From the NCBI RefSeq assembly GCF_000181795.1, contig NW_003526941.1:5826099-5890098 (forward strand): a DNA stretch of 64,000 nt, given 5' to 3'. Under the pieces are notes generated by a model. That model did no database searches. It worked only from the letters and a program-made list of their open reading frames with translations, and was not told the origin of the DNA. Each line of letters starts with the position of its first letter. The first letter of the stretch is position 1. Source of the stretch: Trichinella spiralis. Its lineage: Eukaryota. Below, piece by piece: positions 42,372-58,365 of the stretch. The translations under genes and the position numbers were made by a program.

Positions 42372-43058
42372 TTAAAAGGTTTTAAGGGATTTCGCCTTAA
42401 GAGGTTTGGTTTTATACAACAGCTGCTGTGCAACCAGCGTGCTCATAAAATAGTAAAGCCGACACTGCTTATACGACTTGAGTAAAATTCTGATGAACCA
42501 AACTTCCATGCAAACAAAGAGGAGCATAATAGCGAGGAAAATGGAAGCACCGATGCGAATTGCCTTCTTCAGCCAAAGGGTGTCAACTTCTGTATGAAAT
42601 GGTGTCGTGACATCCATGCATTGTTGTGGATGAACGAAAGCTAAATAGATGATGAAAAACGCGAACACGGTGCACATGAGAGTTGTGGCGATTTTCACAA
42701 CAAGCTGAGGAAGCAAGAGTAAATAATGTCGTCTGCATATCGCATATGTGGCAATGGCTGAACTCGCATAAGAAACCCAGCATACCGGAACAGTGAATGT
42801 CAGCCAGCTAGCCGTCAAAGCGTTGTTGGTAACATTTGCATAAAACAAAATACCCCTAACGACTACTGCTGACCAGAAAATAGCGTCGACGATGCTTGTC
42901 ACCACTACTGCCGTTTTGATTCGCAGTCGACCGCAGAAAAACCTTTCATTATGAATTAGGAAATCAAACTGATTATCCGACGTGGTTGTTAGCTGATTCT
43001 GGTCATATTTTGTCAACCAACGTGAATTGCACGTATTGTGATTTCTGAAATATTTCAT
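42372..43058 (-). CDS. Intronless four-TM membrane protein, 228 aa
   Basis: FFCGRLRIKT motif before TM1, four hydrophobic helices, YLLLLP after TM2; resembles LAPTM-like small nematode membrane proteins. Confidence 0.65.
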   Translation of the reverse strand: MKYFRNHNTCNSRWLTKYDQNQLTTTSDNQFDFLIHNERFFCGRLRIKTAVVVTSIVDAIFWSAVVVRGILFYANVTNNALTASWLTFTVPVCWVSYASSAIATYAICRRHYLLLLPQLVVKIATTLMCTVFAFFIIYLAFVHPQQCMDVTTPFHTEVDTLWLKKAIRIGASIFLAIMLLFVCMEVWFIRILLKSYKQCRLYYFMSTLVAQQLLYKTKPLKAKSLKTF

Positions 43059-50846: not shown

Positions 50847-51044
50847 ATTTAAAAGTGAAAAGCAATTTTGAAATAATAAATTTATTGTTTAAAATTAAGT
50901 GCTTTTACTGTGATTGGCGGCGTAATTTAAAATTTTAAAAATTGTTTAAAGTGGTTATTTTAAAGGGCAGTTTAGTTTAAATTTAGTCAATTATTGAAGC
51001 GAAATACGAATTCTGTTCATTGTATCTTTTTCTGTTCTGCTGCG

Positions 51045-52726
51045 ATGGCGGTGTCCAACAGTAAAGCGACGATTTCCGACTGGGTTGCGAATATTCTGAA
51101 TATGGGGTCTGCTGCTTTGATGGAAAGAACTATATGTGAAGAGAAAGAACTGATCAAGCCTGATCCGCAGGGTTCGAAGAATTTTTCACTTTTGGAAAAT
51201 CAGCCAAAGAACCGTTATCGAGATATTCCCTGCTTGGACCGCAGCAGGGTAATACTGCGTGGTTCTACGTCTGACTACATTCACGCAAATTGGGTTACGG
51301 TACCGGAAATGGGAATTCGTGTAATACTTACACAAGGTCCAAAAGAAAACACCCTCTCTGATTTTTGGGATATGGTTGCGCAAGTAAGTTTTTATTTTAT
51401 TTTTAATTCATAAAATGAAGTAATTGTTTAAGATTGAAACATTTTGTTCGATTTGTAACTTTATTGTTGTTGAAGAAAAATATGTGAATAACTTCTATTG
51501 CTTATTGTTCATGTTATTTAATTTTTAAGGAGGATGCGATGCTTTTGACAAATTTGGTGAAGACGGAAGAAATAAGCACCGATAAATGCGTCAAATATTA
51601 TCCTGAACTTCACAAATCCACCAAATGTGAAGGCGCTGATAATTACATCGTGATTTGTACCAGAGTAAGCAAAAAGCAGTTCTTCACTAAAATGAAGCTT
51701 GTGTTGTACTGCAAAAAGACGGAAGAACGCAGAAACCTGGTCCTGTTCACGTACAACGAATGGCCAGATCACGGTGTGCCAGCATGTGGTCAATTTGTGC
51801 AGTTTGTCCGGTACATCATAAAATGCATGAAGAAAATGAATAATGAGCAGCACATGCTTATTCACTGTTCAGCTGGCGTCGGTCGATCAGGAACTTTATT
51901 GGCTTCAATACGATTGTTGTTGCAGTTGGAAGCTGGAGAAAGGCCAAACGTATTTCAAGTGGTAAACTCAATAAGGCAAGAGAGAGCACGGGCTGTACAG
52001 GGGCTGAATCAATACAGGTTGCTGTATTGTGTTATTCTCTATTCTTGTATTTTGTTCAACCATGTTCCATCAGATAAAGTTGCTGATGTGAAAAATATAA
52101 TCAGAAGTCTGCTGAAAAAGAAGCAGAAGGTTCATAGTGCTCATAAAAGAAAATCTGAACTTCGGATTGAGAACAACGCTCCCTTGGAATTATCTTGTAC
52201 AGCTATGGAGAATAGTGCTGTGTTGAGCACTTCAAAAGTCGATGATTCAACTGCACATAGCTCGATTGCTATAGAAAAAGAAGCAGAAGCTGTAGTGAGA
52301 GCGCATTCATCCCTCGCATTAACGGCATGCCAGGATTTTGATGATAGTCCCACTTTGGAAAATGAAGCAAAACGCACAAGTTCGAAAGGCTTCCTTGACA
52401 GACCAAAAGAAATATTTGCAAAACATACAGTATCCCCAAAGCAGGTGAAATCTGCCGACAAAAAGAAACAAAGTGATAGAGTAATTTTTGTTTATTTTAT
52501 CATTTGAATGAAAAAACATTTTCACTTCAGAAAAATGCAAATATAGCAATCTTGTCCTATTATATTTTGTTGCTTAATTTTCCGGTTTCAGGTGAATAAT
52601 TGTTTTGTTGTATTTCAGGTGAATTCAGCTTCGAAGCCTCAGAAAAGTAATAAGAGTCGTAAAAGTAAAAAATCTAGTAATAAAAGTAAGAAAGGAAAGT
52701 CGAAGAAAAAACACACGAAACAATGA
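51045..52726 (+). CDS. Classical non-receptor protein tyrosine phosphatase with a Lys/Ser-rich C-terminal tail
   Basis: KNRYRDI, DYIHANWV, TQGP, DFWDMV, WPDHGVP, IHCSAGVGRSG and AVQ..QY motifs are intact; the last exon 52619-52726 is inferred. Confidence 0.88.
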
Positions 52727-53271
52727 TTAAACCTGCATTTCAAATTCTCTATCTGCAACTTTGTAACAAACTGCTCTCCCGGGCGCACTATGACGCTTCG
52801 TTTATTGTATATTTATAATTGAAAATTTGCAACTGTTTTTCTTTAGATAGATAAATTTTTATTTCAAGATTTTCTGCATTTTCAAATGGAAAATTGTATT
52901 TCAAATTTACTGAATATTTTTTATGGTGTTTTGTCCATATTTTTTAAACACTTTTCGTTGCAAAATGTGCGCAGTATATTTGATCAAATAAACACTGATA
53001 GCTTATCATTTTTACTGACTATATTTATGACAGCGATACAGTATGAGCATATATAAAAAGTTAATTGAAAACATTATTTAATTTTAGGAGTTAATTGAAA
53101 TATATATGTATACTAAGTTAATTTAACCTAATGTAATTATTTTCCTTTGGAAAGATTGAATTTATTGAAATGTTTGAATATTATAATTATATTATTACTT
53201 TATAATCTTTTATTACAGTAATAGCAACAGCCTTGCAAAGTTTAAATTAAGAACGCTGTTTGGGATTGTTA

Positions 53272-55032
53272 ATGTTGAATGTAATTTGTACAAGGTGTCG
53301 GTTTCATTTGTACCGGTGTTTTTCAAAAGTAAATTACATCGATCGACAGCCTAACAGCCTCACTGAGTTGGGTTATTTCAATGCATCTGTCGGACGATTG
53401 TTGGAGAAATCGCTGGGGTTGAATATCACACACTCATTCGATTGCGATTTGAAAGCGCTCGAGAAAAAATTATCCAAAATATCTGATTTGAATAATTTTC
53501 GAACTTTAGTACCTGAATTAATCCAGTGTGGAAATCAATTTCCATCGGAAGCGTGGTCTTTGTTCGGAGACAGGGTCGTTGGCTATATAGAAACAGCGAT
53601 CGACCGAGTTGACAGTGATGAAGAACTTTCTCGATGGTTGTTACTAATTGCTTATTATTTATCCCCTTCTGATCAACGCTGGTCAACATGTTGTTCCCAT
53701 CTGAGTGAGAACATCGAACGTATTAGCGACGATGCTTTTCTGTGCCTTGTCCACGCATTTATGCTTCGTAGAAGCATTCCGAATAGTATTTTTCCAATTT
53801 TAGATATGCAAATTCGACGTCGTCTGGGCAAATTTTCTTTCGATGATTTGGGATTGATATCGCTCGCTTATTTCAAATGCTGTCGACGATTCCAACACGG
53901 TCACGTTGGGCGCTACTTGGCTGTGCGTTTGGAAAGTCAGTTGACAGCCGTGAATGAACTGCAAAACGTGCCTGTAGCAGCTGTACTCAAACAGCTTCGC
54001 TACGTCCAACAAGGCGACTTGAGCAATTTGTTGCCAGGTATATTGAAACGATTCGCTGAACTGCCATCAAGTAGTTTAAAATTAATAACTTGGATTCATG
54101 CTGCTTATTTTGCCACAAAGTTGTGCTTGTTCGACGAGAATTTTACGAAATCACTTTTCGACAAAGTTCGTGCTAGCAAAGGGGAAATTCGTGCGAAAGA
54201 TGCTTCGGTTTTACTTCATTATTTGGCTATTTTCGATCACAGTGCTGACGGTATGGATCAATTTTTGGTGAACATTTTTCAAACTGATCCAGATGTCATC
54301 AGAAGCGTGATCAAATTTCCAGAAACACTGACATCAGCTTTACGATCAGCGGTCATAAGAGGCTTGTATCCGGTGGAATTGATCGACAGTTGCTTTTCGT
54401 CAGAGTTCATCAGTCGCTTCACAAAACGTCACTATTTTCCATTTTTGGATTATTATTTTCTAGATTGTTCAATGGCAATCGAGAAATCAAATTCTGGACC
54501 AAGGCTGGATTTTAAATATCTGCCGAACATTTCCAAAAATAAAAGCAGCGACATGTACACAGGTATCGACAATGACAGTGTTTATAAAAAAATTCATTGT
54601 CACATCGCAAATGCAGTTGGAAAACGTTTGCGATGTTCCACTGCAGCGGTGCAGTTTTGTCGAATACTTCCGCATTCGTTTGCTCTCGATACTGTCATCA
54701 GATTTCGTGATGGAAATTTCGACATGACCAAGCTACAGTATGAGATCAAAGCTTACAACAAAGAAGAGTTGCTTGTGCCAGCTGATGAGATCCGGATTGT
54801 TTTGTTTGTAGAGCATAATAATCGTTGTCGTTTGCACACGCAAATTCCTCTTGGTCATGTTCAAGCCAGGAAACGGCAAGCGATTCAGCTTGGTTACAAA
54901 GTGATCGAGTTGAACGGCTATGAAATAGCTAGACGACCATTGAATGATGTCGAAACAACCCAGCTGGTCAATGTCATCCAACAGTTTTGTAACAGTAAAG
55001 TCAAATCATCTTCAATAGTACGTGCATTTTGA
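53272..55032 (+). CDS. FAST kinase domain/RAP-domain mitochondrial RNA-processing protein (FASTKD5-like), intronless
   Basis: Basic presequence-like N-terminus, helical repeats (LGLISLAYFK, IRAKDA, GLYPVELI), C-terminal RAP-like PLGHVQARKRQAIQLGYKVIEL. Confidence 0.75.
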   Translation: MLNVICTRCRFHLYRCFSKVNYIDRQPNSLTELGYFNASVGRLLEKSLGLNITHSFDCDLKALEKKLSKISDLNNFRTLVPELIQCGNQFPSEAWSLFGDRVVGYIETAIDRVDSDEELSRWLLLIAYYLSPSDQRWSTCCSHLSENIERISDDAFLCLVHAFMLRRSIPNSIFPILDMQIRRRLGKFSFDDLGLISLAYFKCCRRFQHGHVGRYLAVRLESQLTAVNELQNVPVAAVLKQLRYVQQGDLSNLLPGILKRFAELPSSSLKLITWIHAAYFATKLCLFDENFTKSLFDKVRASKGEIRAKDASVLLHYLAIFDHSADGMDQFLVNIFQTDPDVIRSVIKFPETLTSALRSAVIRGLYPVELIDSCFSSEFISRFTKRHYFPFLDYYFLDCSMAIEKSNSGPRLDFKYLPNISKNKSSDMYTGIDNDSVYKKIHCHIANAVGKRLRCSTAAVQFCRILPHSFALDTVIRFRDGNFDMTKLQYEIKAYNKEELLVPADEIRIVLFVEHNNRCRLHTQIPLGHVQARKRQAIQLGYKVIELNGYEIARRPLNDVETTQLVNVIQQFCNSKVKSSSIVRAF

Positions 55033-55575
55033 ACATAATATCGTTTGATAATAAAAAATAAACTTTCCTTATTCTTTATAAGCAAGCACACTTATATTTT
55101 ATACATTATTTAATGATCTTATTTTTAATTGTATTTTATTTACTAATCTGATGAAAATTGAAAGCTTTACCCATTCACATGAACTTGACCGTCGGAAAAT
55201 CTTATGGTAGAAATTGACAACGGTACAATGAAATCGACTTCAGGATTGCACAGTCAGAACAAACTAGTTACTTCAAACTTGCATTTTTACTGAAATCTTT
55301 GTTCATTATTGAATTGATGTAAGCATATTTCTTTAATGCAATTTACTAATACTTTTTATCTTTTCTATTTCAACAAAAAACAAAATAGGCATTCTAATTT
55401 ATTGCTTGTAAAATACAATTTGAATTCATCCGATACTACATATATACAAAATTCTAGTAGTTTATTGTTGAAATATGAATCGAGGCACTGTTCTCTTTTC
55501 GTAAGCATGTTTCTAAAAAAATAAAACATTAAATAATTACGAATAAAGATAAAACAATTAGTTAGTTATATTAAA

Positions 55576-55644
55576 TGTATCAGCATTTATTATTCAACAA
55601 GACCATTCAGGCGAAAGATGGTAAACAATTCATCATAGACTACA
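55576..55644 (-). ncRNA. Box C/D snoRNA, predicted guide for 28S rRNA Am (yeast Am807; snR39/snR59 and U32/U51 site)
   Basis: Box C ATGATGA (55636-55630), D' CTGA (55610-55607), C'-like TTGTTGA, box D CTGA (55583-55580), terminal TGTA/TACA stem. Guide TTTACCATCTTTCG is complementary to the conserved LSU sequence CGAAAGAUGGUGAA. Confidence 0.88.
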
Positions 55645-55799
55645 GTAAACAAAAGCTAATGCAAACAAAATTATCTTACTAAATTATCTTCGCAAATTCT
55701 TCAGCAGGTCTTTGAGTCTAAAAAATAATCTATCTCAAAAAGTAATAATTGAACTTATTATAAGCTTCACAATAAAACATATTATAATCAGAAAGTAAG

Positions 55800-56084
55800 T
55801 GCTGCTTGGTTACAGAGTAGTCTGAATTGAGTTTTAGGAGAAGCCATCGCACTTAGCACTGCCAGTCGTGAAAAATTCTCAATTGCATCAACCCCGTCTC
55901 AGCCAAACTGGCGTCGTGGACATTTTGTAGAGTTATGCAATACTTTTTCTGGTTCCTTCACGTGCATTTACTACACTTCCCGTCTCGGGAATGAAGTGAC
56001 TTTATCTCAGACCTTCCCAGGAGTGAAGAAGAGCGACAAGCGCTCTTTTGTGACTCCTTAAGCTTCCTTGTCCCCAAGCAGACA
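55800..56084 (-). ncRNA. RPPH1: Nuclear RNase P RNA (~285 nt)
   Basis: CR-I GGGAAGGTCTGAGA (56018-56005), CR-V ACTCAATTCAGACTA (55832-55818), P4 GGTCTGA/TCAGACT, P1 CTGCTTGG/CCAAGCAG, P2 GAAGCT/GGCTTC, P3 hairpin AGGAGT..AGAGCG/CGCTCT..ACTCCT, CR-II AGAAA, P12 ATTGCAT/ATGCAAT, CR-III TGAGA. Confidence 0.93.
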
Positions 56085-56613
56085 ACGTCATAACATTCAT
56101 CATCGATATCAGAATTGAAAACTATGTCACACTAAAAACACTGCTTACCTAATAAAAGCGACCGATCACCAGCATCGCAGTCACATAATGATGCCACATT
56201 TCACAACTGATGAATGACAGTATTCAATAAACTTGAATATCATTATCTTTCAAAGCATTAATGGACGCATAAGAAAGCACCCAAAAATAAAATTTTATAG
56301 TTAATAAAATAAAATTTTTATATTTTATAATATTGTTTGTTTTTTAACTATTACAATAAAGCTGATTATTTGTTACTATTTTACGTTTAATTGCTTATTT
56401 TCATTAAAAGGGAATGAATGTAAAGCGCTATCTTGAAAATAAAATTGCAAATATTTTTTTATAAATTTAAAATTGTTCTACTATGAAAATTTTATTTTGT
56501 AATCTTTCCATTTTTATTTATTTATTTCCTGCGCTCATTTAATTTACTGTTACAGTAATACAACGGGTGAACGAACGATATATGATATTGAATGGCAGTG
56601 TGCAGTCTCACCA

Positions 56614-58365
56614 ATGTTTTTTTCACGGAAAAAAAAGTCTGCTTCGTCTTCAAAACTTCACTCTTCTCCAGATGCAGGCGCTGTCCATGGTATCACATCA
56701 TTGCCTCAAAATTTGCGTATGAAGTTCAAAAGAGGTGTGAACTACAACAGTAAGTTAGTTGTCAATTACAATGTGTATTTACATTTTTTACGTAGAAAAT
56801 TTACAATAATTTCATTTCACGAATTGTCTTTTTTCATGATATGAATATCATTCATTGGTTCTATTTTGGTGTTTGAAAACGAAGCATTTATTGTTTTGGT
56901 AATTTGCTTAGATTGTTGTAGTGAAAATTTTACTCCGTGGCGATCGAAATGTTGGTAAATCGTGCCTTCTGCGACGTTTGCAAGGTGGTCCTTTTATTGG
57001 ACAGTACATCCCGACTGAAGAAATTCAAGTTGCCAGTGTAGAATGGAGTTATAAAACTCGTGATGATGTCATTAAAGTTGACATTTGGGATGTTGTGGAC
57101 CGTAGTAGAAAGAAAACTAGAAATGTGGACAATTTGAAGATAACAAATGATTCAGTTGAGGTAATTTTTTCTACTTTCTCAATGTGATATTTTACTGATT
57201 ATTTCAGATCGTTGAACCGTCATTAGATGCGTCATTTATTGACGTTTACCAAGGCGCGCATGGAGTGGTGCTGATGTTCGATGTTACTAAACCTTGGTAA
57301 AAATAAGATTTTTTGTTCTTCTTATTTCAGATAAACTGTTTTTAATTTTTTAAAATTATTTTTAGGACATGGGATTATGTTAAAACAGAATTGCCCCGAA
57401 TTCCGTCCCACATTCCTGTTCTTGTGCTGGCCAATAAGCTTGATGTTCAAAGCGGACGCGAAGTAGCGGAAGATAGTTGTCGTCTGTTTTTATACGATTT
57501 TGCAAGGTTTTCTATACAAATGTCTTGTTAATAGTTGGATGCTTCATGCTATAATTTGCATACTTTTGCATCTCAGATCATCTCGATCTGCTGTAGTTCG
57601 TTATGGTGAGGCTTCAATGCGCAACGGGTTTGGTTTGAAATTGCTGCATTTGTTTTTCAATGTTCCATTTCTTCTTCTCGAAGTATGTATATGCATAACA
57701 TAAATATTACATATTCAAGTAAACTGTTTTTATTTTTAGCGACAGACACTTCAATCTCAGTTGGATCGAAACACCGAAGAGCTTGATGTTACAATTCAAG
57801 AAATTGATCTGTACGAACAATCACCCGATGGAAACTATTCAACGTAAATATTTAATTGTACAAACGTCGTCGGTTAGTAGACGTTATATTTTGCAGATTT
57901 TTGGAAACTAGAGTTCACGGTAGTAGAAAGTCAACCAGTAAGTTTGATTTTATTGTTTTTTTTTCATTTCACTTGTTTGCTTAATTGTTACATGCTGTAA
58001 CAGTTCATGCACATGAACTATGTGAGCAAGAACCGTGCCCGGTAAGGTCAGTTCCTTCAGTTACTACTGACACGTGCAATGCAGATGATTCTCTGCACGA
58101 GGCGACAAATGTTACTGTAAGCACTAGTGTTGCTGCTGCTGCTGCTGCTGTTACTACTGTGCAGGAAGAAGTGAATGATGATTTGCAGAATTCAGAATTG
58201 AACAACTGGCTAAATTGTGATTCTTCTGAAAAGATCGTTCCTAGTCAGGAACAATTTTATGAATCGGATGATTCAGATAGTCCTAATCCTATGGTTGCCC
58301 AGATTCCAGTCGATTCTTCGGACGAAGAAGAATCAATAGCGACAAGAAGAGAAACAAGAACATGA
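56614..58365 (+). CDS. RABL6: Rab-like protein 6 (RBEL1/PARF), multi-exon; 3' exon structure approximate
   Basis: [73 protein letters not shown], acidic tail with NPMV. Confidence 0.9.

Follow-up and report, generated by a model that had tools for sequence, protein, structure and literature searches.

The locus and its neighbours

The window analysed here is a 64,000-nt stretch of the Trichinella spiralis genome (contig NW_003526941.1, positions 5,826,099 to 5,890,098 of the forward strand), and all coordinates below are positions within it. On its minus strand, at 55801–56083, lies a gene for nuclear RNase P RNA, which matches Rfam family RF00009 at 56077–55806 with 133.3 bits against a gathering threshold of 28, and whose helix P1 pairs a few bases farther out, at about 56083 with 55801. 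The match to the covariance model is full-length (model positions 1–301), with the conserved regions and P4 present, and it is the sole above-threshold Rfam match across the whole window; no U6, snRNA or tRNA was found there. A sequence-only reading of this DNA had placed an RNase P RNA and a snoRNA at the locus, and for the RNase P RNA the Rfam match bears it out.

Head to tail with the RNase P RNA, on the same strand, is a candidate box C/D snoRNA (55572–55641) with a C box at 55636–55630, a guide at 55622–55612, a D' box at 55610–55607 and a D box at 55583–55580. The boxes and the guide are in place, but the snoRNA scores under the gathering threshold in all three Am982-type families compared (RF00535, ceN70 and ceN109), with a best value of 25.9 against 49 bits. 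The 11-nt guide, directly before D', is identical to the guide in snoMe28S-Am982, ceN70 and ceN109. Given this identity and the sub-gathering scores, we predict the target from the family name: the snoRNA would, as an RNA of the Am982 type, guide A-methylation of LSU rRNA at the adenosine equivalent to Drosophila 28S A982, a site equivalent to yeast Am807.

On the plus strand, an ORF at 53272–55029 shares 84% identity with a protein of T. pseudospiralis and 38% with a Trichuris RAP-domain protein, and has a weak FAST_1 match. The T. pseudospiralis model P0001 fuses this FASTKD-like ORF with a tyrosine phosphatase (51024–55029, plus strand), which is likely an annotation merge. An AMPK beta ORF shares 92–94% identity with proteins of T. 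murrelli and T. zimbabwensis.

Our RNA evidence comes from four runs (X1, X2, X6 and X20) of the 24 listed. X20 consists of raw reads and is RNA by its record; X1, X2 and X6 consist of contigs and are RNA by our guess, and they behave as RNA, with the introns of the Rab-like gene described below spliced out and zero depth at 56340–56540 and 56809–56875.

The plus-strand gene at 56614, which has a Roc/Ras-type exon and was named RABL6 in the sequence-only reading, is here called Rab-like. It has a non-coding 5' exon at 55184–55318, with an in-frame stop and no ATG before 56614, and a 1237-nt 5'UTR intron at 55319–56555 (donor GTAAGC, acceptor TTACAG). The joint 55318>56556 (GT..AG) has a contig depth of 642 in X1 and is crossed by two reads in X20. 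The whole RNase P/snoRNA unit lies antisense within this first intron. It had been proposed that the unit is divergent from RABL6 and possibly shares a bidirectional promoter with it; this is contradicted, because the Rab-like mRNA begins on the other side of the unit and encloses it in antisense. The Rab-like gene may have a minor downstream start as well.

The first exon of the Rab-like gene looks unannotated. It begins 140 nt past the end of the FASTKD-like transcript (55044) and is joined across the 1237 nt to 56556–56749, and it could reflect either operon-like read-through or a separate start. Donor 56749 is joined to two acceptors 10 nt apart, at 56912 in X6 and at 56922 in X1 and X2, so one of them must shift the frame. 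At 56646, in the Rab-like coding exon, X2 and X6 have A where the window has G.

The host transcript and its splicing

The two RNAs had been assigned to a three-exon, non-coding host gene, the elements of which were confirmed in the sequence: a donor AG|GTAAGC at 56148 (5' splice site 1, 56143–56148, minus strand), a donor GTAAGA at 55679, T-rich AG acceptors ending at 55718 (candidate acceptor 1, TTTTTTAG, 55718–55725, minus strand) and 55513, and lengths of 431, 38 and 167 nt for intron 1, the middle exon and intron 2, respectively. The downstream AATAAA is present at two sites, 55466 and 55403, and the joined exons contain stops in all three frames (3, 7 and 8 stops), the longest ATG frame being 40 aa. 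Intron 2 had also been called unusually long, a weak claim: introns of the neighbouring gene measure 162 and 172 nt, and mean intron lengths in the genus Trichinella are 218–284 nt, as given in the accessible part of the source (PMC4740406).

The junction between 55680 and 55512 (CT..AC) is present in two of the four runs, as two X20 reads with two different starts and as an X1 contig with a depth of 207.5, compared with 134.6 for the unspliced path. Splicing at this junction removes intron 2 (55513–55679, GT..AG, minus strand), which contains the snoRNA and a branch-point-like CTAAC at 55565, and joins a 38-nt segment (55680–55717, minus strand; exon 2 if acceptor 1 is used) to the last exon. 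By contrast, the junction between 56149 and 55717 is found in none of the four runs, where X20 depth over exon 1 is below 1 and contigs tell of presence, not absence. Contigs from X1 (55680–56178), X2 (55483–56155) and X6 (55692–56110) run across 55718 without a break. Thus, the proposed three-exon host holds at its second junction, whereas intron 1 is retained in the contigs of three runs.

The positions of contig ends bear on the use of donor 1. At the proven second junction, contig ends sit 29 bases inside the exons (55709 and 55483), and the X1 contig end at 56178 equals the donor-1 edge, 56149, plus 29; this assembly geometry is an indirect sign that donor 1 is used. The corresponding value for acceptor 55718 would be 55688, and none of the contigs ends there. 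In X2, a contig end lies at 55483 and 55709 is crossed unbroken, as might be expected if a different donor were joined to the last exon. The 3' end of host exon 1 is covered at 56149–56178 (minus strand), with the X1 contig reaching 56178 and the X2 contig 56155, and the 5' end of the exon lies at or beyond 56178.

Same-strand X20 depth is unbroken from 56205 to 55335, at 0.88–29 upstream and 2–11 downstream of the RNase P RNA. At the upstream edge, minus-strand depth is 0.88 over 56139–56205 and 0 over 56206–56272; a 5'TOP start suggested earlier at CTTTCTT (56277–56271), a word that occurs 25 times in the window, is therefore not borne out. The word TATAAA lies at 56299 in very AT-rich DNA and occurs 243 times in the window. 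Two plus-strand X20 fragments lie over 56139–56339. At the downstream edge, the last exon (55388–55512, minus strand) is delimited by an X1 contig and by an X20 depth of 11 that drops to 1.67, and the X1 contig puts the end of the RNA near 55388, 10 nt past the AATAAA at 55403–55398. Together, the X1 contig and X20 show minus-strand RNA from at least 56178 to about 55388. No cap, start site or poly(A) tail was seen in the four runs, and X20 has no mature snoRNA peak, with a depth of 4–6. These observations support one non-coding RNA from the minus strand that extends across both the RNase P RNA and the snoRNA, loses the snoRNA intron by splicing and ends past AATAAA, and with it a shared non-coding host for the two RNAs.

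The RNase P RNA itself is a stable, abundant RNA. X20 depth over it is 573–1898, more than 100-fold above its flanks, with read ends accumulating at 55805 (44 of 198) and 56067 (328 of 1008), and its reads come from the minus strand, their mate orientation being the reverse of that seen for the plus-strand Rab-like gene. Since 2520 of the 2611 mapped X20 reads are at least 99% alike, and no variant letters are listed across the RNase P RNA, the abundant RNA matches the window copy.

Polymerase signals, box motifs and the source of the RNase P RNA

The features of a type 3 Pol III gene, namely a TATA element 21–27 nt upstream, T4–5 directly after the RNA and no internal terminator, are missing from the RNase P RNA gene. 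No TATA-like word occurs in the 47 nt upstream (56130–56084). There is no T-run at the end of the RNA, the first T4 past P1 being at 55777–55774, 24 nt downstream of P1, and a run of five T lies inside the RNA (55871–55875, minus strand); T4 is enough to terminate Pol III in C. elegans, according to the accessible text of PMC2527325. A T5 at 56138 and a T4 at 56121 are expected to halt a Pol III leader, and the X1, X2 and X6 contigs traverse T5, T4 and T6 runs that would be expected to stop this polymerase. Given the internal T5, the lack of a TATA element and the lack of a T-run at the RNA end, Pol III synthesis of this RNase P RNA appears unlikely.

For comparison, we scanned metagenomes by motif and obtained 114 loci, none of them Trichinella-like, of which 15 passed the motif filter; 12 of these were scanned, 10 match RF00009 and nine were used as controls. 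None of the nine has an internal run of T4 or longer or an upstream C box, seven have a TATA element about 30–40 nt upstream, and eight have T4 or longer right after P1, the ninth being cut off; the nine are mostly close kin, perhaps representing two or three independent lineages, and are thus a weak control. One metagenome RNase P RNA gene (L038:689–960, minus strand) stands apart among the controls: T5 follows P1, and no TATA lies upstream.

The RNase P RNA is flanked by a putative C box with a perfect ATGATGA (56097–56103, minus strand), 45 nt from donor 1 and 14 nt before helix P1, and a putative D box, CTGA (55788–55791, minus strand), 10 nt after P1 and 70 nt from acceptor 55718. In the 970-nt region, a perfect C box occurs twice and no more, once in each intron, at 45 and 43 nt from the respective donors, and the D boxes of introns 1 and 2 end 70 and 67 nt from their acceptors. 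Both boxes are equally close in 58 of 127,034 random 283-nt blocks, a count that rises to 220 or 577 with wider windows, the windows having been chosen post hoc. A scan for the donor-C-D-acceptor geometry gave three matches in the window, two of which are introns 1 and 2. The third, at 42592 on the plus strand, has spacings of 57 and 61 nt and 473 nt between its boxes, is without an Rfam match and probably arose by chance.

X20 depth in the bin 55737–55803 is 4.33, meaning that almost no reads extend to the D box, and X20 ends accumulate inside the boxes (55805 and 56067); this suggests that the C and D boxes are absent from the mature RNase P RNA, although a minor precursor would escape notice in 67-nt bins. 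The boxes may be signs of a precursor that is protected by a snoRNP, or of a site once occupied by a snoRNA. A more specific proposal is that the RNase P RNA was inserted into a C/D frame that it still uses, with the C box at 56103 and the D box at 55791, joined by P1, binding core snoRNP proteins that would shield the intron-released precursor, and with a move to Pol II independent of that in insects. We regard this proposal as doubtful. Were the frame in use, it would offer one way for such an RNA to survive transfer into an intron.

Several other features of the region were considered. The 10 nt between P1 and the D box (55791–55800) are complementary to the consensus 5' splice site, and a 7-bp pairing with donor 56148 is possible; this pairing might slow splicing of intron 1, or the sequence might equally be a cryptic plus-strand donor that arose by chance. 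An origin of intron 1 by duplication of intron 2 was not shown, as the alignment from donor to C box outdoes all 1000 shuffles only if the anchors are counted; for the stretch between the anchors, 119 of 1000 shuffles do as well, and for the 3' flanks 289 and 913 of 1000. A special hairpin joining the flanks of the RNase P RNA was rejected (−10.8 kcal/mol, equalled by 177 of 1000 shuffles; z = −0.75 for the whole region). The only candidates for another small RNA, in exon 1 or in the flanking sequence, were a sub-threshold match to archaeal sR9, on the plus strand, and a match to sR55 with a C box only, neither of which we accepted as a third RNA. The sR9 match (56184–56238) is weakly C/D-like, scores 20.7 bits and lies in the plus-strand intron.

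Given that the RNase P RNA lies within a spliced, non-coding, snoRNA-carrying transcript, it is likely to be cut from a shared Pol II RNA rather than made from a gene of its own. We put at roughly 70% the probability that it is trimmed from a short non-coding Pol II transcript that also releases the predicted C/D snoRNA via the spliced 167-nt intron. Pol II would start in the AT-rich stretch above 56178, and the transcript, with intron 2 spliced, would be polyadenylated near 55388. Splicing from donor 56148 would be slow and would lead to 55718 or directly to 55513, the latter defining one 636-nt intron with both RNAs. Once debranched, the RNA would be trimmed by 5' and 3' exonucleases as far as helix P1, where RNase P proteins would stop them, as in Drosophila. 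In that species, Rat1/Xrn2 and the exosome do the trimming, Pop1, Pop4, Rpp20 and Rpp25 protect the RNA, and the yield of RNase P RNA benefits when its intron is poorly spliced, as described in the accessible part of PMC6797745.

The existence of a host transcript is not in itself proof that the mature RNase P RNA comes from it. The host may merely read through a gene that has its own promoter, of Pol III type 3 or of snRNA-type Pol II, just upstream of 56083. Such a promoter is usual in animals, including C. elegans, in the accessible text of PMC4287351, and a B-box-like word (8/9 match) at 56120–56112 and the T4 at 55777–55774 speak in its favour. Nonetheless, the internal T5, the missing TATA, the T5 and T4 at 56138 and 56121 and the different make-up of the controls, none of which has a bearing on a snRNA-type Pol II promoter, lead us to consider an own promoter unlikely.

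An alternative possibility is that the host is indeed the source, but that the RNase P RNA is exonic or retained and is excised by endonucleases without splicing at 56148. The 431-nt stretch is kept in the contigs of three runs, its X1 contig depth of 304.6 comes near to the combined depth of the two paths downstream (207.5 + 134.6), the branch-point-like word in intron 1 is weaker than that in intron 2, and a splicing-independent route is known from Drosophila reporters, in the accessible part of PMC6797745. This explanation is nonetheless quite improbable, given the exact placement of the X1 contig end at donor 1 + 29 and the strong donor and acceptor that bracket the RNA; with a donor required no more than 100 nt upstream and a T5-AG no more than 120 nt downstream, a random 283-nt block is flanked in this way at 417 of 126,700 positions. 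Lastly, the window copy could be a passenger, with a second, ordinary Pol III gene elsewhere supplying the RNase P RNA. Our count of RF00009 copies covers the 64,000-nt window alone, which leaves room for such a gene, but the near-identity of the X20 reads and the lack of variant letters over the RNA make it very improbable that the window copy is a bystander.

Comparison with known systems

If the RNase P RNA is trimmed from a Pol II host, as we propose, then RNase P RNA made by Pol II has likely arisen a second time in animals, here within a non-coding snoRNA host. If true, this would be a second independent switch to Pol II, by another route; tRNA 5' processing would be coupled to rRNA methylation at one promoter, and the parasite and its mammalian host would differ in how they make an essential RNA.

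The snoRNA hosts GAS5 and UHG have short exons without a reading frame, and in their C/D snoRNA introns some 70 nt separate the D box from the acceptor. The Trichinella host is likewise spliced and non-coding, with an intronic snoRNA and the same spacing of about 70 nt. It is unlike GAS5 and UHG in that one of its passengers is a ribozyme, there are no 5'TOP reads and one junction was seen.

In the accessible text of PMC4287351, embedded RNase P RNA is reported in insects and crustaceans only, within protein-coding genes, and Pol III signals are reported in all other animals examined, with C. elegans in its table. Trichinella, Trichuris and Brugia have no matches in the six text-searchable files of that paper, three picture-only supplements standing outside this count. 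In the literature that we covered, which includes few subscription papers, we found no description of a nematode or snoRNA-host RNase P RNA, or of the Trichinella gene.

In insects and crustaceans, the intronic RNase P RNA resembles that of Trichinella in having no Pol III signals and in lying in the sense direction within a spliced transcript, in what appears to be a poorly spliced intron, and in the accessible parts of the two sources its recipient gene is always protein-coding and its distribution is confined to one arthropod clade (PMC4287351; PMC6797745). The Trichinella RNA shares with this type a longer transcript on the same strand, but not a protein-coding recipient, the longest frame being 40 aa. 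The Trichinella unit further differs in that its non-coding host is shared with a snoRNA, belongs to a nematode and is nested antisense in an intron of another gene.

Caenorhabditis telomerase RNA, in intron 2 of nmy-2, is likewise a long functional RNA that moved into a nematode intron, and it is thought to be trimmed as a snoRNA; it has H/ACA boxes and a coding host, whereas in Trichinella C/D boxes with a putative role flank the RNA (PMC12921731, accessible part). In sno-lncRNAs and SPAs, C and D boxes at the ends would likewise shield an intronic RNA from exonucleases, as set out in the accessible part of PMC7038934. These RNAs carry a whole snoRNA at each end, whereas Trichinella has one C box and one D box around a 283-nt ribozyme, and, unlike the ends of sno-lncRNAs and SPAs, those of the mature Trichinella RNase P RNA seem to lie inside the boxes.
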